DNA of 64,000 bases from Bacteroidota bacterium (GCA_026992635.1 JALWYU010000108.1:28072-92071), one strand, 5' to 3'; positions 1 through 8,689 are shown, counted from the first letter of the stretch. Translations and numbers: made by a program. Notes: generated from the sequence alone by a model not told the origin.

Positions 1-2
1 CC

Positions 3-461
3 GGACAACCCGGACAGGTACTCACCAGTCAGGGACCCGGTACACCCCCTCAATGGCAATCAATCAGTACTGGCGGCGGACAGGGTGGTTCCGCATGCAC
101 CTTCAACTGCCCCGACACACTCATTTGCGTGAACGCAAGTGGCACTCCCCTTCCCTGCGGCAGCGCGCCCACAATGACCTGGGGTGCGTGCGCCCGGGCA
201 TGCGCAACAACCACTGCCAGCGGATTCTCCGACTGGCGAATGCCCAGTTTCTTTGAACTGATTGACCTCGCCGCCCACAAAAACATAGGCACATGGAACG
301 TGCACGTCTGGACACGTACACCCATCGGTATGTATGGCGTCTACCCCTCGGGCGTCACCGGCAACGGCGGCAGTTACTACGTGTGGCGCGCCGGTGACGG
401 CCTCTGGGGTTACTCCAACGCCACCTACGCCACCATCGCCCGGTGCGCCTGCGTCCGTTGA
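3..461 (+). CDS. 3' end of a gene that starts upstream of the window; the C-terminal region resembles a DUF1566 / Lcl C-terminal domain (motif ...FSDWRMPSFFELIDL...YYVWR...)
   Basis: Frame 3 is open from the window edge through 461 (the listed 129..461 ORF is its downstream part). DWR(L/M)P...EL..L is characteristic of DUF1566. Identification is by motif only. Confidence 0.4.
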   Translation, partial: GQPGQVLTSQGPGTPPQWQSISTGGGQGGSACTFNCPDTLICVNASGTPLPCGSAPTMTWGACARACATTTASGFSDWRMPSFFELIDLAAHKNIGTWNVHVWTRTPIGMYGVYPSGVTGNGGSYYVWRAGDGLWGYSNATYATIARCACVR

Positions 462-1476
462 GGGATTTGTACAGCCTGAAAGACGGACAGCGCAGCCACA
501 GGCGTGTGCGAACGCCTGTGGCTGCGCTTAGATGCGCACCGGCGAGGACGCGTACCCGCAACACGCCACCGCCGACCCCTCCTCCTCATCTACTACGAAT
601 GGTGCGCACGCTGGGCAGATGTCCGACGCCGAGAACAATAACTGAAAACCAGCGGAGGAAAACGCTACCTGAAAAACCGCGTGCGAACACACCTGGCAGA
701 ACTGGAAGGCAAAGGCAGACAAAAGCCCACACCTTCACCATCACCAGCCCTCCCGAGAAAATCCCTGGAACATGCCACACCGCCAGAACAACAAAAACAG
801 CCTCCACACACCCCGCCAACCTAATAAGCCACCACCCACCCCACTCGCTTCTTTTGCCGGTAACCACAACCAGAGACAGAGAGAGGAACAGGGACAACCT
901 GCCTCCAGCCGATCACGCTAACAATACCCACCCATCATCATAGAACTGATCTCCTTCTTGCTCTGGTGGCTGGGCATCCTTCGCGGGATGCGCACGCCCT
1001 GGCGACAGGTTGCCGGCGAACGTGTCCTGTCCCTCGCCAGTAAAGCCTTAGAACTGGCAGTGGAATCCGCCCTGAGCGAAGACACAATGAAATAAATTCC
1101 AGCGTCCCCTCCACGCACGCAGTAAAATAGAGCTGGCACGCACCTGGCTTTACATACTGCAGCGCCACGCCATCATCAAAGACACCACTTACTTCCAGGG
1201 CGAAAAGAAACTGATGCTCATCAGCGTCCAGCTGACAAAATGGCAGAAATGGGTGGGCAGGCGACGAGTTCCGGGCGCCAACCCTGCCACCACCGCCCCC
1301 ACCACATAGAGAGAGACGAACTGTGAATGCGAACAAGAGAGATGCTGCCAGTGGCTCATTCCTGAGGACCTCCTGATGGGTGCACCGGAAAACTTAGGTT
1401 GAACCATGAATCTTACCCGGGCTCATCCACTCCCAAATGCCAAAGAAAGTGAAAATTGAAGCCACCACATTACGGG

Positions 1477-1896
1477 TCACGCGACCCGCTTCAATATATG
1501 CTTCTTCACACTCCGGGCACTGTACACCTCCTCCTTCTCCATATCCAAAACCAACCGCCAAGCCTGCATCGTCTTCGCTCCTATGATCACATCCTCCGAC
1601 AATTGATCATCCTCCAATACCAGAAACTCATCACTCAACCACTCCCCATCCAGCCGAAACTCCAAAACCACACGATACCGCGCCTCTATAAACCTGCCCG
1701 GCTCCGCCGTCTCAAACCGGTACCCAACTCGCGTCGGCAACACCGTCGCCAACCGCTCAGCAACCCCACGACGTACCAGCGACATCGCCACCCCACTATC
1801 AAACAACACACGATACCGACCCCGCGAGCGATCACCCGCCAACTCCAACTCCTTGTATATCACGCCCATCGCCAAACCCTCTTTCACTTTCCACAC
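1477..1896 (-). CDS. retropepsin-like (clan AA) single-domain aspartic protease, tandem copy 1 of 4
   Basis: Motifs VLFDSGAS (catalytic D-S-G-A) and downstream VIIGAKTMQAW (hydrophobic-hydrophobic-Gly flap/dimer region). About 130 aa, as expected for a homodimeric retropepsin. The start shared by all copies is probably MGVIYKELELAG (about 1869). Confidence 0.6.
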   Translation of the reverse strand: MWKVKEGLAMGVIYKELELAGDRSRGRYRVLFDSGVAMSLVRRGVAERLATVLPTRVGYRFETAEPGRFIEARYRVVLEFRLDGEWLSDEFLVLEDDQLSEDVIIGAKTMQAWRLVLDMEKEEVYSARSVKKHILKRVA

Positions 1897-1955
1897 CTGT
1901 CACCCAACCTCCCAAACAACAACACCCAACCCGCAAGTTCCACCTCACGCACAAC

Positions 1956-2372
1956 TCAACACACCGCCCGCTTCAATATGTGCTTCTTCACACTCCGAAC
2001 ACTGTACACCTCCTCCTTCTCCATATCCAAAACCAACCGCCAAGCCTGCATCGTCTTCGCACCTATGATCACATCCTCCGACAATTGATCATCCTCCAGT
2101 ACCAGAAACTCATCACTCAACCACTCCCCATCCAGCCGAAACTCCAACCGAACCGCATACCGCGCCTCTATAAACCTGCCCGGCTCCGCCGTCTCAAAAC
2201 GATATCCAACTCGCGTCGGCAACACCGTCGCCAACCGCTCAGCAACCCCACGACGTACCAGCGACATTGATGCCCCACTATCAAACAATACACGATACCG
2301 ACCCCGCGAGCGATCACCCGCCAACTCCAGCTCCTTGTAGATCACACCCATCTCCAACCACTTCCCCCACAA
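1956..2372 (-). CDS. retropepsin-like aspartic protease, tandem copy 2
   Basis: Near-identical to copy 1 (LFDSGASMSLV, IIGAKTMQAW). The likely start is the internal MGVIY (about 2351). Confidence 0.6.
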   Translation of the reverse strand: MWGKWLEMGVIYKELELAGDRSRGRYRVLFDSGASMSLVRRGVAERLATVLPTRVGYRFETAEPGRFIEARYAVRLEFRLDGEWLSDEFLVLEDDQLSEDVIIGAKTMQAWRLVLDMEKEEVYSVRSVKKHILKRAVC

Positions 2373-2373
2373 C

Positions 2374-2790
2374 TCAACACAACACTCGCTTCAATATGTG
2401 CTTCTTCACACTCCGGGCACTGTAAACCTCCTCCTTCTCCATGTCCAAAACCAACCGCCACTTCTGAAGTGTAGAAGCACCTATGATCACATCCTCCGAC
2501 AATTGATCATCCTCCAATACCAGAAACTCATCGCTCAACCACTCCCCATCCAGCCGAAACTCCAGCCGAACCGCATACCGCGCCTCTATAAACCTGCCCG
2601 GCTCCGCCGTCTCAAAACGATATCCAACTCGCGTCGGCAACACCGTCGCCAACCGCTCCGCAACCCCACGACGTACCAGCGACATTGATGCCCCACTATC
2701 AAACAATACACGATACCGACCCCGCGAGCGATCACCCGCCAACTCCAGCTCCTTGTAGATCACACCCATCTCCAACAACTTTCCCCACAA
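2374..2790 (-). CDS. retropepsin-like aspartic protease, tandem copy 3
   Basis: Near-identical paralog. Its stop codon is separated from the neighbouring copy's start by 1 nt. Carries the DSGAS motif. Confidence 0.6.
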   Translation of the reverse strand: MWGKLLEMGVIYKELELAGDRSRGRYRVLFDSGASMSLVRRGVAERLATVLPTRVGYRFETAEPGRFIEARYAVRLEFRLDGEWLSDEFLVLEDDQLSEDVIIGASTLQKWRLVLDMEKEEVYSARSVKKHILKRVLC

Positions 2791-2791
2791 C

Positions 2792-3232
2792 TCAACACAA
2801 CACTCGCTTCAATATGTGCTTCTTCACACTCCGCACACTGTACACCTCCTCCTTCTCCATGTCCAAAACCAACCGCCACTTCTGAAGTGTAGAAGCACCT
2901 ATGATCACATCCTCCGACAATTGATCATCCTCCAATACCAGAAACTCATCGCTCAACCACTCCCCATCCAGCCGAAACTCCAAAACCACACGATACCGCG
3001 CCTCTATAAACCTGCCCGGCTCCGCCGTCTCAAACCGGTACCCAACTCGCGTCGGCAACACCGTCGCCAACCGCTCTGCAACCCCACGACGTACCAGCGA
3101 CATCGTCGCTCCACTATCAAACAGCACACGATACCGACCCCGCGAGCGATCACCCGCCAACTCCAGCTCCTTGTATATCACGCCCATCGCCAAGCCAATT
3201 TTCCCACGCTCCGGGCTTCTACCACATTCCAC
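2792..3232 (-). CDS. retropepsin-like aspartic protease, tandem copy 4
   Basis: Near-identical paralog (LFDSGATMSLV, IIGASTLQKW). The likely start is MGVIY (about 3187). Confidence 0.6.
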   Translation of the reverse strand: MECGRSPERGKIGLAMGVIYKELELAGDRSRGRYRVLFDSGATMSLVRRGVAERLATVLPTRVGYRFETAEPGRFIEARYRVVLEFRLDGEWLSDEFLVLEDDQLSEDVIIGASTLQKWRLVLDMEKEEVYSVRSVKKHILKRVLC

Positions 3233-3376
3233 CTATTTCAAACAGCATATCCTGCTTAGAGGTTCCAGCCGGAGATGAACCCCCATCACCTGATCCACTC
3301 AGGCTTCTCCGCCCCCTACCTGATGCCAATTACTGTAGCTCAATTTGCACACGGAATGTGCTGGATACGCTCCAGG

Positions 3377-5056
3377 TTAGCGAGGTGACCCTTCCGAACC
3401 TGATTGATCTACAGGCAAATCCTGCTGTGCGCGCAACTCCCGAGACGCAGCAGATGTAGAAGAAGAAGCCCGATGGTGGACACTGGCTACCGACATAGAC
3501 GCCTGCACAGACGGTAATTCCTCATAAGGAAAGGGTACCGCATATTCATGGACCGGACGCACACGCATCAACGGAAATAAAATCACCTCCTGAATAGCAG
3601 GCTGATCAGTAACCAGCATGGTTAGGCGGTCTATACCGACACCCAGACCCGCCATCGGCGGCATCCCATACTCCATTGCCAGGAGAAAATCCTCGTCAAA
3701 GGGCATGGCTTCTTCGTCACCGCGTTCTCGCTCGCGTTGCTGTTCCAGGAAGCGGGCGCGTTGCTCCCAGGGAATGTTCTGTTCCGTATAGGCATTGGCG
3801 ATCTCCATTCCTCCACAAATCAACTCAAAGCGTTCTGCCAGTGCAGGGTTCTGGCGATGGCGCTTTGCTAACGGAGAAAGCTCCCGCGGGAAATCAAAAA
3901 CCAGAGTAGGATTCCACAGATGTGGCTCTACAAGCGTTCCAAAAAGTTTGTCTATGATCTGGGCGCGTGTGGTGAGCTTTAGCCCCTCAACATCTATCCC
4001 CGCACGGATTGCCAGATCGCGCAATGCAGTATCGGAAAGCGCCTGAATATCCTGTCCTGTAGCCTGACGAAGCCCTTCCAGATAGGTGATCCGCTGCCAT
4101 GGAGGTGTCCAGTCAATGGTTTTTCCACTGTAGGGAAGGAGCAAGGTTCCGGCAACGCGCTGGATCGCTTCGGTCAGCATCTGCTCAGTGAACTGAGCCA
4201 TCCATTGATAGTCCCGGTACGCAATGTAGACTTCCAGCATAGTGAACTCAGGATGGTGTGTCCGGTCAATTCCTTCATTGCGGAAGTCCCGGGAGAACTC
4301 ATATACCCGTTCAAAGCCGCCGATCACCAGCCGCTTCAAATACAGTTCATTCGCAATACGCAGGTATACAGGCATATTGCCCAGGGCATACACCGTAGTC
4401 TGGAAAGGGCGGGCATGGGCACCCCCATACACCGGATGAAGGACCGGTGTTTCCACTTCTAAGCAATTGTGCCGATTTAGAAAACTGCGAATTGCATCAA
4501 TCAATTGTGTACGACGACGAAATACCTCACGCACCCGGGGATGCACCATCAAATCCAGGTAACGCTGACGATGTCGGGTCTCCGGATCTTTGAGTTCGCT
4601 GAAGGCTTTTTCTCCCTTTCGTTTGGCAATTGGTGGAGGACGTAATGCCTTGGCTAAAAGCGTCAAAGACCGAACATCAATGGAGATCTCCCCGGTTCTG
4701 GTTCGGAAGACAGTACCCTCCGCCCGAAGTATATCACCCAGGTCCAGCCACTTACGGACCACATCCCGGTAAAATGTCTTTTCTTCGCCTGGACAAATAT
4801 GATCCCGGTGCACGTACAACTGGATACGCCCCGCCTCATCTTCTATGTCCAGAAACGTTACCGCACCCATAATGCGACGTGCCACCAACCTGCCCGCAAC
4901 CACTGCAACCTTGCCCTGCCACTCGTCAAAAGCCTGATGAATCCGGGAAGTGGGTACCGGCTCAAAACTCACGTAAGGATAGGGATCTATCCCTGCTGTC
5001 TGGAGTTGTGTCAGGCTGCGTATGCGCTCCCGCAACTGGTCCAACACCGCACTCAT
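3377..5056 (-). CDS. lysS: lysine--tRNA ligase (class II LysRS)
   Basis: Full-length match to the LysS architecture (N-terminal anticodon-binding OB fold plus class II core motifs). A ~55-aa Ser/Ala-rich C-terminal tail follows the usual ...ILFPLMR end. Confidence 0.93.
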   Translation of the reverse strand: MSAVLDQLRERIRSLTQLQTAGIDPYPYVSFEPVPTSRIHQAFDEWQGKVAVVAGRLVARRIMGAVTFLDIEDEAGRIQLYVHRDHICPGEEKTFYRDVVRKWLDLGDILRAEGTVFRTRTGEISIDVRSLTLLAKALRPPPIAKRKGEKAFSELKDPETRHRQRYLDLMVHPRVREVFRRRTQLIDAIRSFLNRHNCLEVETPVLHPVYGGAHARPFQTTVYALGNMPVYLRIANELYLKRLVIGGFERVYEFSRDFRNEGIDRTHHPEFTMLEVYIAYRDYQWMAQFTEQMLTEAIQRVAGTLLLPYSGKTIDWTPPWQRITYLEGLRQATGQDIQALSDTALRDLAIRAGIDVEGLKLTTRAQIIDKLFGTLVEPHLWNPTLVFDFPRELSPLAKRHRQNPALAERFELICGGMEIANAYTEQNIPWEQRARFLEQQRERERGDEEAMPFDEDFLLAMEYGMPPMAGLGVGIDRLTMLVTDQPAIQEVILFPLMRVRPVHEYAVPFPYEELPSVQASMSVASVHHRASSSTSAASRELRAQQDLPVDQSGSEGSPR

Positions 5057-5067
5057 CGGTCTGGATT

Positions 5068-6045
5068 TCAGGATTGCTCAGACCGGGACTGTAAACGCAT
5101 ACTGTACAAAAGGATTTGCCAGGCTTTTTCTCGTTCTCCCCAGCGAAGCAAATCCCGGGCATACCGGTGCAACGCGCCCACGGGATCCGGATTCGCAGTC
5201 AATGCTTGGATCTCAGGATAGCGTTCTTCTGCGTTGGGATCAGGGTCAGGTAACCGCGTAACCATGGCTAAGTTACACAGGTCGTCATGAGTCAGGTAAG
5301 GGCTTTGACGGATAGGGGCAGGCAACCGATCAACACCAATACCCAGCTCCGTTTCTTTTGCGGGATAGGACCGATACCCTTCCCTGCCTGTAACCCCGTA
5401 CCACGCCCGATTCAACCGATAGAGAAACCGGATCTTCTGGATATCGGGTATGCCTTCTTCATCCAGGAGATCTTCCCGAACATGGATGCGGACCACCTCG
5501 CCAAAAACCAGATTACCGCCTGCCCGCCCAAACGAAAGCTGAAAGATCCCGCGAGAACGGCATTCCAGATGCACTGGCGACTCAGCAACACGTGGAACCT
5601 GCACGACGTCGGAAGGGATTAAAGTTAGTCCGGCTTTTTCTACTTCGCTGACATCCTGGGGATAGGAAAGACTGGTCAGGGCACATGCCCAGCCCAGCGT
5701 TTCAGGCACTAAGTGCGTAACCCATTCGCCCGTCTCCCGAATATTGCGCAGGGTATCTTTTGTCGTGCCATCCCGTCCCCGGTATGCGGGAGCAATCCCA
5801 ATGATCGGAGGATTGGAAGAAAATGCCATGAAAAAGCTGAAAGGTGCCAGGTTAACAGTCTCACTTTGGGCACCTCGCGTAGTGACCCAGGCAATGGGTC
5901 GGGGCACAACCAGTCCAATCATGATTTGATGCCGGATTCGCAAAGGCAAATCCATGGGGGCAATCGCCCGCATCGCCCGTTGGGAACGCCCACTACCCAT
6001 TCCACCACGATTTTTTGCAAAAACTACAGGGAAAAGACAAACCAA
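5068..6045 (-). CDS. flavin reductase-like (FMN-binding split-barrel) domain protein
   Basis: PRPIAWVTT...NLAPFSFF is typical of the HpaC/flavin reductase family. The start is probably MRAIAPMDL (about 5973). A ~120-aa C-terminal extension is present. Confidence 0.7.
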   Translation of the reverse strand: MVCLFPVVFAKNRGGMGSGRSQRAMRAIAPMDLPLRIRHQIMIGLVVPRPIAWVTTRGAQSETVNLAPFSFFMAFSSNPPIIGIAPAYRGRDGTTKDTLRNIRETGEWVTHLVPETLGWACALTSLSYPQDVSEVEKAGLTLIPSDVVQVPRVAESPVHLECRSRGIFQLSFGRAGGNLVFGEVVRIHVREDLLDEEGIPDIQKIRFLYRLNRAWYGVTGREGYRSYPAKETELGIGVDRLPAPIRQSPYLTHDDLCNLAMVTRLPDPDPNAEERYPEIQALTANPDPVGALHRYARDLLRWGEREKAWQILLYSMRLQSRSEQS

Positions 6046-6127
6046 ATTTTTCCGGACAGCCTTCAGTGAACAGGGAACTTTTCCTCCCCATCCCCATGTT
6101 TTACTGTTCTAAAACAGCAAGCAAACG

Positions 6128-8689
6128 ATGAAGCACCCCCTTTCCATTACATCGGCGTCCATACCCCAGGCACTTCCTTCCATCCCTGGATGCACAACCT
6201 GCCTATCCCTATCCCTTCCAAAACCATACAGGTTGGAACACAGCCACTACGCCCATCAACCCAATGCAACGCTTTCCATCTTGCAAATTCTCTCTGACAG
6301 GCTGTACTGGAAAATCCCCACCACCATGATCGCAAAAGCGATCACCGGACATCCCTCCCTCAGCAGCCTTGTTCTGTTGTTTTTCCTCGCCTGGCACACC
6401 TTGCACGCCCAGACCATTCAGGGAAGAGTCGTAGACGCCCGAACCGGAAAACCTCTACCTTACGCACAGGTCTCCCTACTCACAATGGAAGACAGCCTCC
6501 TCAAAACAACTTTTGCCGACAGCACGGGATACTTCTCGCTCACCGCACCTGCCCCAAGTAAATTCCGGGTTAAAGTGCAGTTTTTTGGGTATACTCCTGC
6601 AACGGTGGAAGTCATCGCCTATCCCCGACGAAATACCACATTGGAAATCCCAATGAAAATCAGTTACAAGCAGTTGCCTGCCGTAACCATCCGGGAGCAC
6701 GACCAGCCCCATCGGAAAGCCGCAACCGACATCAGTCGCATCCGCCTCTACCCCTCACGAACACTCCGTTATGCCGGGACACTGGGCGATGCCATCCGAA
6801 CCGTCCAGACACTACCGTCCGTCTATACCGTTTCGGACATGCGCAACGACCTGGTGATTCGCGGAAACACACCCTGGGGCGTGCTCTATCGCGTAGAAGA
6901 CCTTGACGTGCCAAGCCCACACCACTTCTCCGAAGCAGGCATGAGTGCCGGACCTATCTCCATCCTGAATAACAACACCATTGCACACATGGACTTCTAC
7001 GCAGGCGCTTTCCCTCCGGAACTGGTTGGGGCTTACTCCGGCGCCTTTACCATCCAGCTTGCCCGGGGTAACTACACCCAGCACCAGGGCATCTTCCAGG
7101 TCGGATGGACCGGACTGGAATTCCTCTTAGAAGGACCCCTTCACTGGGCACGCCGTGCTTCCTATCTGGTTTCCTATCGCTATTCCTTCCTGGATTTTTT
7201 AAAATTGCTGGGTGTCCGCTTCGGCACCGCAGCCATTCCCCGATACCAGGACCTCACCTTTACCATTCATCTGCCCGGGAAGTGGGAAACTCGCCTCTGG
7301 GGTATCGGTGGACTCAGCACCATCTCCTTTGAGGAAATCCAGGAGCATGACCAACAGGGACTTACAGTTACAGGTTTAAACCTGGACTTCTCCACGCAGA
7401 CCGGTGCAACTGGCATCCGAACCGTGATCCCCCTGCCTGAGCCCGGGTATGGCACACTCGCAATGGGTGTAACCCATTCGGCGCATACCACTTCGCTGGA
7501 ACGCTGGGATTCCACAACCGGTACACTCCGCCCTCTGTACTACAATACCTATCGTACACAGACTTTCTCTACACACCTGAAAGGCGGCGTAGCACTCAAG
7601 CGTATCCACCTGCGTGGGGGTATCCTCCTGGACTATATACTCAGTCAAAACAACGACACCATTTATCTGGCGAATGGATTTCGTCAGAGCCGGCGATTTA
7701 AGGGGTCAGCCTGGCGTGCCCGTCAGTATCTTCAAGCGGAGTTCGGCTTCACAAGCCGGATGACGGTAACCACCGGATTCGCCACCCGGTATTTTAGTCT
7801 GCCACAGCGCAGTACTGTAGATGCCCATCTTTCTATGGAGGCATCCCTATCCCGAACCACCGAATTTCGTGCTGGATACAGTCTTTTGTCCTTAGAATTT
7901 CCCTTAGTCATTTATCAACTGACCGATCCCACTTTATCGGATTCGGTGGTTTATCCCTTTCGGGCTTTGCCCTTTATGCGCGCCCATCACGTTGTGGGCG
8001 AAATCCATCAGGCAATCGGAAACAACTGGCGTATTGTACTTGCCGCTTATGTTCAGCACCTGTGGAATATTCCCGTAGATGGTGATCGGCGCCTGGGCTG
8101 GTGGGCATTAATCACAGAAGGCCTGGAGTATGGTTTGCGCGTTCCCGTAGTACACCCCGTACCAGAGGGTATCGGCAGAAATACCGGAATTGAACTCACT
8201 GTTCAGCGCCGATTTGTCAAAGGTACCTACGCCCTTTTCACACTCTCCCTCTTTGATTCCAGATACAAAGCCATTGACGGAAACTGGTATCCCACACCTT
8301 ATAACGGCAACTTTGTTACCAACCTGCTGTGGGGCACGGAATTTCCCATTCGGCACTCGGCATGGACCGGCATCATTGACCTGCGCCTCTTCTGGACTGG
8401 AGGACGACGACACCATCCCATTGATACACCGGCAACCCTTCAGGCAAAACAAATTGTGTGGGATTATTCACAGCCGTTTGCCCGACGCGTGCCCAACTAT
8501 TTTCGGCTGGACCTGAAAATCGGGCTACGCCTCTCTAAGAAAGTTTCCCAGGAATGGCTCCTCTATCTGCAAAATGTAACAAACCATAAAAACATCTACT
8601 CGTATGAATTCTCAACAGTCCAGAACAAAATTATTCCTGTCTATCAGATGGGGTTCATCCCGGTGATGCTCTATCGGTTGTTGTGGTAA
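6128..8689 (+). CDS. TonB-dependent receptor-like outer-membrane beta-barrel with an N-terminal carboxypeptidase-regulatory-like domain
   Basis: Signal peptide at an internal Met (MIAKAIT...FLAWHTLHAQT, about 6326). IQGRVVDARTGKPLPYAQVSL matches the CarbopepD_reg fold. A plug-like segment (DLVIRGNTPWGVLYRVEDLDV) is present, and the terminal residue is W. Confidence 0.7.
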   Translation: MKHPLSITSASIPQALPSIPGCTTCLSLSLPKPYRLEHSHYAHQPNATLSILQILSDRLYWKIPTTMIAKAITGHPSLSSLVLLFFLAWHTLHAQTIQGRVVDARTGKPLPYAQVSLLTMEDSLLKTTFADSTGYFSLTAPAPSKFRVKVQFFGYTPATVEVIAYPRRNTTLEIPMKISYKQLPAVTIREHDQPHRKAATDISRIRLYPSRTLRYAGTLGDAIRTVQTLPSVYTVSDMRNDLVIRGNTPWGVLYRVEDLDVPSPHHFSEAGMSAGPISILNNNTIAHMDFYAGAFPPELVGAYSGAFTIQLARGNYTQHQGIFQVGWTGLEFLLEGPLHWARRASYLVSYRYSFLDFLKLLGVRFGTAAIPRYQDLTFTIHLPGKWETRLWGIGGLSTISFEEIQEHDQQGLTVTGLNLDFSTQTGATGIRTVIPLPEPGYGTLAMGVTHSAHTTSLERWDSTTGTLRPLYYNTYRTQTFSTHLKGGVALKRIHLRGGILLDYILSQNNDTIYLANGFRQSRRFKGSAWRARQYLQAEFGFTSRMTVTTGFATRYFSLPQRSTVDAHLSMEASLSRTTEFRAGYSLLSLEFPLVIYQLTDPTLSDSVVYPFRALPFMRAHHVVGEIHQAIGNNWRIVLAAYVQHLWNIPVDGDRRLGWWALITEGLEYGLRVPVVHPVPEGIGRNTGIELTVQRRFVKGTYALFTLSLFDSRYKAIDGNWYPTPYNGNFVTNLLWGTEFPIRHSAWTGIIDLRLFWTGGRRHHPIDTPATLQAKQIVWDYSQPFARRVPNYFRLDLKIGLRLSKKVSQEWLLYLQNVTNHKNIYSYEFSTVQNKIIPVYQMGFIPVMLYRLLW

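Follow-up and report, generated by a model that had tools for sequence, protein, structure and literature searches.

What does it mean for an uncultured vent bacterium to carry four nearly identical protease genes in a row behind a lysine--tRNA ligase gene, and by what process did these genes come to differ from one another? The locus lies in the window, i.e. the whole 64,000-nucleotide stretch of Bacteroidota bacterium DNA that was analysed (GCA_026992635.1 JALWYU010000108.1:28072-92071), and its parts, read along the minus strand, are the following:

3377..5056, minus strand: lysS, class II lysine--tRNA ligase, 559 aa (NF001756, E 7.6e-178; TIGR00499, E 2.7e-160)
3188..3376, minus strand: spacer of 189 nt between lysS and copy A
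2792..3187, minus strand: copy A (copy 4 of the initial annotation), 131 aa (PF13650, E 6.2e-6, 27.3 bits)
2374..2769, minus strand: copy B (its copy 3), 131 aa (PF13650, E 1.1e-5, 26.4 bits)
1956..2351, minus strand: copy C (its copy 2), 131 aa (PF13650, E 2.1e-5, 25.5 bits)
1870..1955, minus strand: spacer of 86 nt between copies C and D
1477..1869, minus strand: copy D (its copy 1), 130 aa (PF13650, E 3.7e-4, 21.6 bits)

The four ORFs, all of them intact paralogues of a retropepsin-like protease gene, run head to tail within 1477..3232, and lysS is directly upstream on the same strand (NCBIfam models match its residues 6-498, and a C-terminal tail of about 60 aa extends past the family model); in both respects the initial annotation of this DNA was borne out. 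TRF found a 418-bp period over 1950..3193 (3.0 copies, 94% matches), with the fourth unit, copy D, placed beyond a longer spacer than the other units, and pairwise identity among the four is 90.6-95.1% for nucleotides and 91-93% for proteins. The units had also been described as separated by a stop, one nucleotide and a start, but this spacing relies on an in-frame TTG. Since the start conserved in the family is the ATG of MGVI, with which 25 of 25 aligned homologues begin, the spacers are instead 22 nt (A-B), 22 nt (B-C) and 86 nt (C-D); the spacer between the two copies visible in a sister species (assembly L089) resembles the last of these. A frameshift or read-through fusion of neighbouring copies, an idea that arose from the one-nucleotide spacing, was rejected, as the downstream frame is open for just 13 codons before the conserved ATG and has stops farther upstream; no slippery site was seen between adjacent copies. 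Neither a sigma-70-like promoter nor a terminator was found in the spacer between lysS and copy A, and the matches that these scans gave fell only within the repeated coding sequence, sigma-70 scans being uninformative for a Bacteroidota-like genome such as this one. Rfam, searched at a permissive E-value, and a tRNA scan returned nothing in positions 1-6000, and Pfam lent no support to putative transposase remnants located downstream of copy D, be it in the window or in L089.

Are the products proteases of the retropepsin type? The catalytic residues are encoded at:

3110..3118 (copy A), 2692-2700 (copy B), 2274-2282 (copy C) and 1792-1800 (copy D), minus strand: codons for D24-S25-G26

Each copy had been said to contain DSGA and a downstream hydrophobic-hydrophobic-Gly motif. 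The latter is present, as IIG, in 4/4 copies; DSGA is found in A, B and C but not in D, which reads D-S-G-V-A, a sequence seen in one of 187 family members (residues 27-28, after the catalytic DSG, are AT in A, AS in B, AS in C and VA in D). In an alignment of 25 homologues the D and G of the D-[ST]-G motif are invariant, and D, G and the next small residue are invariant or nearly so. Given its DSGV, copy D may perhaps be drifting. The profile searches gave a similarly divided answer, with A, B and C above the gathering threshold of Pfam Asp_protease_2 (PF13650, 24.3 bits) and D, at 21.6 bits, under it; scores for Pfam RVP_2 and gag-asp_proteas were under their thresholds, and a relationship to TIGR02281-type models, which had been envisaged, was not recovered, as no NCBIfam aspartic-protease model matched any copy at E<=1. 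The fold itself, in contrast, agrees with what had been proposed: an AlphaFold2 model built on copy B (pLDDT 88.5, pTM 0.81) is a retropepsin fold, in which I95-I96-G97 is followed by a helix at 99-104. A structure search of this model against the PDB returned 31 matches at E<=1e-3, the best being to Ddi1 RVP domains, EIAV, HIV and XMRV proteases and the bacterial RloA, and the best 50 matches listed (E up to 1.8e-3) consist entirely of Ddi1, retroviral, RloA and plasmepsin chains. Sequence profiles matched ASPRV1 (E 5e-6), Ddi1 (E 3e-4) and the Ty3 protease. According to the structural model, then, the four paralogues are single-domain aspartic proteases of clan AA with the retropepsin fold. 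Because retroviral proteases of the same fold are obligate dimers, we infer that the array products dimerise, and the active site would need two paired subunits, each contributing one catalytic Asp. Presumably the products are proteolytically active, and together they would form a dimeric cytoplasmic protease with mixed subunits.

The closest structural relatives are the RVP domain of Ddi1/Ddi2 and ASPRV1 (SASPase), with 3s8i, 5yq8, 4rgh and 7d66 as the best matches (Foldseek E 6e-6 to 1e-4, TM 0.55-0.68). They share with the array proteins a D-S/T-G-A loop, a helix inserted after the active site, an I-I-G followed by a helix and a domain size of about 125 aa, at an identity of only 15-22%. 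Whereas the eukaryotic domains are parts of larger proteins (with UBL/UBA in Ddi1 and a pro-form in ASPRV1), an array protein is free-standing, with 131 aa, and ends in a conserved basic tail, R-x-V-K-K-H-[IM]-L-K. The MEROPS A2 proteases (HIV-1, EIAV, XMRV, Ty3) resemble it in their single-domain fold, one catalytic Asp per chain, flap hairpin and hydrophobic-hydrophobic-Gly motif, but the array proteins lie outside any Gag-Pol polyprotein, have no element genes nearby and possess the extra helix of the Ddi1 type. Three bacterial single-domain aspartic proteases of clan AA may also be compared, as they are described in the available portions of the respective reports: RimB of Pseudomonas, which is cytoplasmic and trims poly-Glu from ribosomal protein S6 (PMC11957791), RloA of Pseudomonas, which is periplasmic (structures 9g58/9g59; PMC12239564), and APRc of Rickettsia, which is membrane-anchored (PMC4140852). 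Those portions do not mention tandem mosaic arrays. RloA is itself a structural match to the array model (E 2e-4, TM about 0.48), and RimB, as portrayed there, provides a precedent for a cytoplasmic retropepsin that acts on a ribosomal protein, which is relevant because the array's family repeatedly sits in the ribosomal spc operon. The array family nevertheless differs from all three in being another subfamily, with no signal peptide, membrane anchor, rimK/rimA neighbours or conserved partner. PF13650 is a broad, functionally uncharacterised family, within which the array subfamily has its own signatures (N-terminal MGVI, FETA, LSDEF, TxQxW and C-terminal KKHMLK) and is found at about 375 loci of GTDB representative genomes, with 266 clusters counted at E<=1e-10. 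Its nearest named homologue, from Thermosulfurimonas sp. F29, is 65% identical and bears the NCBI name 'retropepsin-like aspartic protease'.

How the four genes came to differ can be read from the 29 sites at which they divide two against two. Fifteen of these group A and D against B and C, 13 group A and B against C and D, and one, at codon 118, groups A and C against B and D. The first two partitions are spatially separated: in ORF nt 1-205 all 15 informative sites follow AD|BC, and in nt 237-384, 13 out of 14 follow AB|CD. Along the gene the partition switches only three times, and none of 100,000 permutations of the site order gave so few switches (p<1e-5). The same is seen in pairwise differences, which in the 5' half amount to 6 sites for A-D and 2 for B-C against 18-20 for the cross pairs, and in the 3' half to 3 for A-B and 5 for C-D against 15-17. 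AD|BC sites end at ORF nt 204/205 and AB|CD sites begin at nt 237, which places the switch in a short interval:

2951-2983 (copy A), 2533..2565 (copy B), 2115-2147 (copy C) and 1633-1665 (copy D), minus strand: recombination switch interval, ORF nt 205-237

Calling the 5' block type 1 (A, D) or 2 (B, C) and the 3' block alpha (A, B) or beta (C, D), one finds each of the four combinations, in the following order along the array:

Copy A: 1-alpha, with DSGAT, R66-V-V, S99-T-L-Q-K103 and V118
Copy B: 2-alpha, with DSGAS, A66-V-R68, STLQK and A118
Copy C: 2-beta, with DSGAS, AVR, K99-T-M-Q-A103 and V118
Copy D: 1-beta, with DSGVA, RVV, KTMQA and A118

The initial annotation had described a checkerboard of shared substitutions. 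The sharing that it listed is exact (RVV in its copies 1 and 4, AVR in 2 and 3, KTMQA in 1 and 2, STLQK in 3 and 4), but the fine-grained pattern that the word implies is not there, and one sees instead two blocks, a single switch interval and one extra site at codon 118. Its conclusion that units recombined, rather than being produced by simple serial duplication, is strongly supported by the two incompatible and clustered partitions. Third-position sites at ORF nt 6, 12, 63, 147, 150, 153, 237 and 327 obey the partition of their block (pairwise Sd between copies is 10-22), and since these synonymous sites share the partitions of the amino-acid patches, the pattern reflects exchange of diverged DNA and not convergent selection. 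Judged by its sequence, copy B would be the hybrid expected from one unequal crossover, its 5' half coming from a C-type and its 3' half from an A-type copy, although a single unequal crossover and gene conversion would account for it equally well. The AC|BD site at codon 118, together with differences between the window and a second assembly (see below), would fit short conversion tracts or phasing errors. In terms of process the array thus looks like fairly ordinary tandem-gene evolution that has shuffled versions of two older copies.

What distinguishes the block types at the protein level is mainly positions 66/68, 99/103 (with L101M), 27-28 and 118. The first two are exchanges in the place of a basic residue:

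2984..2992 (copy A; CGT GTG GTT = RVV), 2566-2574 (copy B; AVR), 2148-2156 (copy C; AVR) and 1666-1674 (copy D; RVV), minus strand: Arg-swap patch, codons 66-68
2879..2893 (copy A; STLQK), 2461-2475 (copy B; STLQK), 2043-2057 (copy C; KTMQA) and 1561-1575 (copy D; KTMQA), minus strand: Lys-swap patch, codons 99-103

R66 and R68 lie on the same face of one beta-strand, K99 and K103 are one helix turn apart, and by sequence alignment the swap positions correspond to HIV protease residues 59/61 and 88/92. The same alternatives exist throughout the family ([A/V]-V-R or R-V-x; K...A or x...K), where a Lys at 99 and a Lys at 103 are almost mutually exclusive and columns 66-68 and 99-103 rank with the pairs that covary most strongly. 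In other phyla, too, tandem paralogues diverge at the very columns that differ within the array: across 8 tandem loci the difference falls most often at column 68 (6/8) and 66 (5/8). Summed over the four swap columns, the difference count was reached in 0 of 2000 entropy-weighted simulations, a statistic that is somewhat inflated, as the swap columns are fast-evolving and the 8 loci include a related pair (L016 and L018).

We consider it fairly probable that the locus consists of tandem, intact genes for retropepsin subunits, recombined from two parents, among which selection keeps distinct subunits side by side. Each gene would encode a cytoplasmic single-domain clan AA subunit of about 131 aa. 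Two diverged parental copies would have given rise to the array by duplication and unequal crossing-over or gene conversion, which would leave each gene with 5' 205 nt of type 1 or 2 and 3' sequence of about 150 nt of type alpha or beta, so that all four combinations result, and copy B would stem from a single misaligned crossover of a C-type with an A-type copy. That selection retains functionally distinct subunits as neighbours is suggested by the occurrence of the swaps family-wide and by tandem paralogues elsewhere that differ at the same columns. Co-expression behind lysS, presumably by co-transcription, would then allow as many as ten homo- and heterodimers, which could cover a broader range of substrates or partners; the mixed dimers may have an altered specificity.

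One may also consider a neutral alternative, in which amplification is a by-product of unequal crossing-over, the swaps are near-neutral and the paralogues are redundant homodimers that matter only for dosage. In both swaps the positive charge is retained and stays on one face, as structurally equivalent solutions would have it, there are many synonymous differences between the block types, so that the blocks may simply reflect age, and the atypical DSGV of copy D also points in this direction. Yet all four copies are not only intact but under purifying selection, with dN/dS of 0.10-0.22 between copies at dS of 0.13-0.31 (dS to the sister-species copy is 0.47-0.65), and the differences in independent tandem pairs of other phyla fall preferentially in these swap columns, which makes this alternative possible but rather unlikely.

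Another concern is that the number, order or phasing of the 418-bp units is wrong, short metagenomic reads having led to a mixture of paralogues or strains. Every other available assembly fails at the array. L091, a second assembly of the same organism, has the same four-unit layout but with a 100-N gap inside copy B, the two edges of which overlap by 48 nt; L093, a Logan contig, breaks off at the array edge, 231 nt past the lysS stop; and of the sister-species contigs, L089 is interrupted by a 100-N gap in its second copy and L090 stops inside its first. Moreover, copies B and C share an identical stretch of about 180 nt, which exceeds typical k-mer lengths, and over about 8.5 kb L091 differs from the window at 8 positions, all of them inside the array at paralogue-variable sites and each carrying the state of another copy, which could be ongoing conversion or phasing error. 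The four-unit layout thus recurs in L091, but the exact copy number of four is not secure, and the array is a caution on trusting repeat copy number in short-read MAGs. A purely artefactual origin is nonetheless unlikely, as the A-B-C-D layout occurs in two assemblies in which A and D are identical base for base, the sister species independently has at least two copies with both the RVV and AVR forms, and tandem pairs are found in about 9 of 79 other loci of the family. The four block combinations, in particular, would not be assembly chimeras, because the 5' and 3' type markers are just 32 nt apart, a distance that a single read or k-mer spans, so all four combinations must occur in reads. 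A JGI metagenome scan with a 20-mer common to all copies and the sister species returned two chance matches without the gene.

A further alternative is that the gene is a selfish or easily transferred hitch-hiker, which would persist by residing in operons that are highly conserved and strongly expressed, their conserved flanks making transfer through homologous recombination easier, with tandem amplification as part of the same life style. Family members are often found within housekeeping operons, repeatedly including the ribosomal spc operon, at positions as varied as the rplE-rpsZ, rplR-rpsE and sufD-sufS junctions, an O-antigen cluster and the site following lysS, and single MAGs may have several copies on different contigs. 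BLAST clustering and Pfam counting over about 78-79 loci found no family-wide partner (98 and 95 different Pfam families occur in the flanks of about 78 loci), and codon usage in the array is atypical, with third-position G at 56% and C at 7.5% compared with 33% and 21% in lysS. We nevertheless regard this as quite improbable: no terminal repeats, target duplications or mobility gene came to light, the gene keeps its position within a lineage (7 loci in Armatimonadota, 4 in Blastocatellia), as fits ordinary vertical inheritance after rare transfer, and purifying selection argues for a function useful to the host.

Least credible is a phage-related role, in which the genes would be host-kept relatives of head-maturation proteases that act against phages, for instance through wrong cleavage of capsid or scaffold proteins or through mixed dimers that poison the phage protease, and that diversify in an arms race. 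Its attraction lies in longer family members that join the retropepsin domain to the scaffold half of gpI, the head-maturation protease-scaffold of phage Mu (gpI/gpZ; PF10123, phrog_328), one of them, whose gene immediately precedes a Mu-like gpT capsid gene, being 31% identical to copy B (E 2e-19), as well as in the patchy distribution over many phyla with variable copy number and the repeated diversification of the same surface positions. The window proteins, however, have neither the scaffold part nor a phage context, the protease half of sequenced Mu-like phages is a different domain (the fusion matches them in its scaffold half alone), a PHROGs search with the stand-alone proteins gave nothing below E 0.19, an IMG/VR scan with the family profile found no relative, the only PADLOC match, a weak full-length similarity to the candidate PDC-M08B (E 0.004-0.03), is at noise level, and the neighbours are housekeeping genes, with no defence genes or defence island nearby; we think such a role very improbable. 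Similarly far-fetched is a combinatorial dimer system in which the swaps at 66/68 and 99/103 set the choice of partner or target, as part of a constitutive, protease-based anti-phage device housed in housekeeping operons. Opposite swap states would then be kept adjacent in several phyla as the target evolves fast, candidate targets being the homologous retropepsin-type protease-scaffold proteins of Mu-like phages, and, if true, it would be a new kind of anti-phage device.

Retropepsin-like proteases of bacteria are few and mostly uncharacterised, the studied cases being RimB, RloA and APRc. The array is of interest as a natural 2 x 2 collection of subunit variants in which to study pairing and diversification in single-domain aspartic proteases, and subunit pairing bears on the origin of two-lobed pepsins from dimers. 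The pattern in the wider family, with its recurrent Arg and Lys swaps, its sites in the spc and suf operons and its kinship to Mu-like protease-scaffold proteins, raises questions that can be tested.

On the minus strand, lysS is followed in the order of transcription by four ORFs, named here A, B, C and D (copies 4, 3, 2 and 1 of the initial annotation, respectively). Since an M-G-V-I start is common to 25 of 25 aligned homologues, the true starts are the four ATGs in the following layout:

3377..5056, minus strand: lysS, the 5'-most gene of the series, ahead of copy A
3187..2792, minus strand: copy A, ATG 3187, 131 aa; spacer after lysS 189 nt
2769..2374, minus strand: copy B, ATG 2769, 131 aa; A-B spacer 22 nt
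2351..1956, minus strand: copy C, ATG 2351, 131 aa; B-C spacer 22 nt
1869..1477, minus strand: copy D, ATG 1869, 130 aa; C-D spacer 86 nt

Four tandem genes directly 3' of lysS on one strand, as initially annotated, are thus found both as ORFs and as a 418-bp period (Tandem Repeats Finder over 1950..3193, 3.0 copies, 94% matches), D falling outside the period because the spacer ahead of it is longer. The proposed "stop, 1 nt, start" spacing had to be discarded, however, as the in-frame TTG on which it depends lacks conservation, ATG-based spacers being 22, 22 and 86 nt.

Several features of the surroundings may be recorded here. At its C-terminus LysRS continues for about 60 Ser/Ala-rich residues past the family model (window 3377-3560; the model covers residues 6-498 of 559), and a sister species (555 aa) shares this extension. 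In the assembly of that species, L089, the spacer leading from lysS to the array (about 6010-6050) holds two tandem occurrences of a 19-nt motif, CACATTTGCTTAGCCTATC, which is absent from the corresponding spacer of the window. The array coding strand (1477-3187) is very G-rich and C-poor (GC skew +0.54, versus +0.07 for lysS; third codon positions 56% G and 7.5% C, versus 33% and 21%), and close homologues elsewhere have skews of 0.3-0.4, raised relative to their flanks. Long stop-free antisense ORFs over the array (e.g. plus-strand 1456..2088, 210 aa, and 2816..3259, 147 aa) were rejected as genes, being a side effect of this skew. Downstream of copy D, synteny with L089 stops at about window 1446; no recognisable gene was found in window 462-1476, where ORFs are of low complexity and without Pfam matches, and the plus-strand ORF 129..461 encodes the C-terminus of a protein with an Lcl_C domain (PF07603, E 6e-6, below cut-off).

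The copies have a predicted retropepsin fold, complete with D-S-G loop and I-I-G motif, in agreement with the initial assignment of this fold and of a hydrophobic-hydrophobic-Gly motif. An alignment of 25 sequences gave an AlphaFold2 model of high confidence (pLDDT 88.5, pTM 0.81); its top PDB matches are Ddi1 RVP domains, then EIAV, HIV and XMRV proteases and bacterial RloA, and among viral proteins it comes nearest to caulimovirus and retrovirus proteases, plus some phage "retropepsin-like" proteins. Sequence-profile matches are ASPRV1, Ddi1 and the Ty3 protease. D-S-G-A had been described in every copy, but this holds only for A (DSGAT), B and C (DSGAS), D reading DSGVA, unique among 187 family members. 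All four copies match Pfam Asp_protease_2 (PF13650), three above the gathering score and D below it (21.6 vs 24.3 bits), and no aspartic-protease model matched in an NCBIfam scan of the copies. From the predicted fold we infer that the array proteins would dimerise, and since direct reading of the sequence reveals no N-terminal hydrophobic segment, they are probably cytoplasmic. The tail R-x-V-K-K-H-[IM]-L-K (residues 119-127 of each copy) is highly conserved in the family alignment, yet the model predicts disorder there (pLDDT <50 for residues 128-132, about 50 for 121-130). The tail may serve as a peptide for binding or self-regulation. Armatimonadota spc-operon copies have a different C-terminal end (...IIIDPSVTRLRF).

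By the features tested, the array proteins belong to the clan-AA retropepsin-like proteases and are predicted to work alike, the Ddi1 and ASPRV1 domains being nearest in structure to the predicted model. They are not members of the characterised bacterial groups RimB (PMC11957791), RloA (PMC12239564) or APRc (PMC4140852).

The four copies differ at 41 of 384 aligned coding nucleotides. Every one of the 15 two-against-two sites in ORF nt 1-205 supports the pairs A-D and B-C. Of the 14 such sites in nt 237-384, 13 support A-B and C-D, the single exception being codon 118 (V/A), where A groups with C. The partition switches three times along the 29 informative sites, and so few switches occurred in none of 100,000 site-order permutations. 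Differences by half are as follows:

5' half (nt 1-220): like pairs A-D 6, B-C 2; cross pairs 18-20
3' half (nt 221-384): like pairs A-B 3, C-D 5; cross pairs 15-17

Thus, naming the 5' part type 1 or 2 and the 3' part type alpha or beta, A is 1-alpha, B 2-alpha, C 2-beta and D 1-beta. The checkerboard of the initial annotation is real in that groupings conflict along the gene, but it takes the form of two blocks with one 32-nt switch interval, not of a fine checkerboard. Since synonymous sites share the same partitions, convergence is ruled out as the source of the mosaic and diverged DNA was exchanged, so that recombination among units, as had been proposed, is upheld. Gene conversion is compatible with the data but not required: a single misaligned crossover that joins a C-type to an A-type unit gives exactly the order 1-alpha, 2-alpha, 2-beta, and it accounts as well for the precise 418-bp period and for the near-identity of the two 22-nt junctions. 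Such reshuffling of tandem paralogues by unequal crossing-over is a textbook phenomenon. All four genes are under purifying selection (dN/dS among copies 0.10-0.22), and with dS of 0.13-0.31 among themselves and 0.47-0.65 against the sister-species copy, they either postdate the species split or have been homogenised more recently.

An assembly error in copy number is a rival explanation of the array. The host is an uncultured, deep-branching, Bacteroidota-like organism from hydrothermal metagenomes (lysS identity about 52% to named Bacteroidota and at most 64% to any sequence from beyond its species group), and four other assemblies cover the locus. That of the same organism, L091 (1 mismatch in the 6.4 kb that match), shows these four units too, with a 100-N gap within copy B whose flanks overlap by 48 nt. 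The Logan contig L093 ends at the repeat edge, 231 nt past the lysS stop; in L089 (about 92% lysS DNA identity), a complete copy is followed, after a similarly long spacer, by another that is broken by 100 Ns; and L090 ends within its first copy. Over about 8.5 kb the window and L091 differ at only 8 positions. Every one of these is a paralogue-variable site of the array (window 2061-2659, L091:9850-10690) and shows another copy's state, which reflects either very recent or ongoing conversion between strains or a phasing error. The four block combinations are safe, since 5' and 3' markers lie only 32 nt apart; the copy number of four and some single-site assignments are provisional.

Judging by the sequences of 173 distinct family members, the residues that distinguish the block types are not peculiar to this array. 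In the strand Y-x-V-x-L-[DE]-F, Arg/Lys is found at position 66 (R-V-x) in 61 and at 68 (x-V-R) in 64, and at both in one only; in the helix after I-I-G-A, Lys/Arg is at 99 in 34 and at 103 in 127, and at both in three only. The column pairs 99-103 and 66-68 are among the family's strongest covarying pairs, and neither swap (i/i+2 in the strand, i/i+4 in the helix) moves the positive charge to another face. By our own sequence alignment, rather than tool output, we take residues 66/68 to correspond to HIV-1 protease 59/61 in the strand after the flap, 99/101/103 to N88/L90/Q92 in the helix adjoining the dimer interface, and 27-28 to A28/D29 in the substrate cleft. In the sister species, L089 has the RVV form and L090 the AVR form. 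Across eight tandem loci (seven independent lineages), the columns differing most between paralogues are 68 (6 of 8) and 66 (5 of 8), followed by flap-region columns and then by 99 and 103 (3 of 8 each), and none of 2000 entropy-weighted simulations reached the total observed over the four swap columns. This suggests that selection keeps unlike subunits together, with neutral amplification as the rival reading; the case for selection falls short of proof, because of the fast evolution of the swap columns and the small sample (8 loci).

A word-indexed search returned only 24 relatives, the nearest named one being from Thermosulfurimonas sp. F29 (65% identity). More sensitive scans gave 375 loci of many phyla in GTDB representative genomes, and also 791 clusters at E<=1e-3, 266 of them at E<=1e-10. 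Most members are free-standing, of about 125 aa, and tandem pairs occur at about 9 of 79 loci, four being the largest copy number seen. There is extreme diversity among neighbours, with 98 Pfam families on the upstream and 95 on the downstream side at about 78 loci; about two thirds of them are co-oriented with the family gene, and half of the co-oriented downstream genes begin within 30 nt. A hitch-hiking gene is another rival to be considered. Housekeeping operons are a recurrent location:

L007:7308-7691: rplE-[gene]-rpsZ (S14)-rpsH
L016:5989-6775 and six further Armatimonadota loci: rplF-rplR (L18)-[two copies]-rpsE (S5)
L047:about 6001-6366, Blastocatellia: sufD-[gene]-...-sufS
O-antigen cluster with degT/glycosyltransferase flanks: one copy in strain F29, two in a metagenome relative
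sppA-priA: adjoining family gene

In the ribosomal and suf operons (L007, L016, L047), which rank among the best conserved in bacteria, the gaps to neighbours are only 5-60 nt. A literature search for the spc operon together with an aspartyl protease found no paper.

Longer relatives (P0138, L094:825-1778; P0092, P0098, P0099, P0109, P0111, P0120, P0156 and P0161) match the family profile at E 1e-17 to 1e-21 and are fusions, in which an N-terminal retropepsin-like domain precedes the scaffold (C-terminal) half of Mu gpI, the head-maturation protease (PF10123, phrog_328); a Mu-like gpT major capsid gene lies just downstream of the P0138 gene. GenBank phages matched the scaffold half only, and a literature search found no paper linking a retropepsin with a head-maturation protease. 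These fusions are candidate aspartic prohead proteases of Mu-like phages. A phage-directed role is a further rival for the array itself.

Our proposal is that the array would encode co-expressed subunits of one dimeric cytoplasmic aspartic protease, whose four subunit types could form up to ten dimers, with the variable positions by the catalytic loop and the two surface swaps possibly widening the range of substrates or partners. The array itself, subject to a real assembly caveat, is a known kind of event; it offers some leads of interest at the level of the family.
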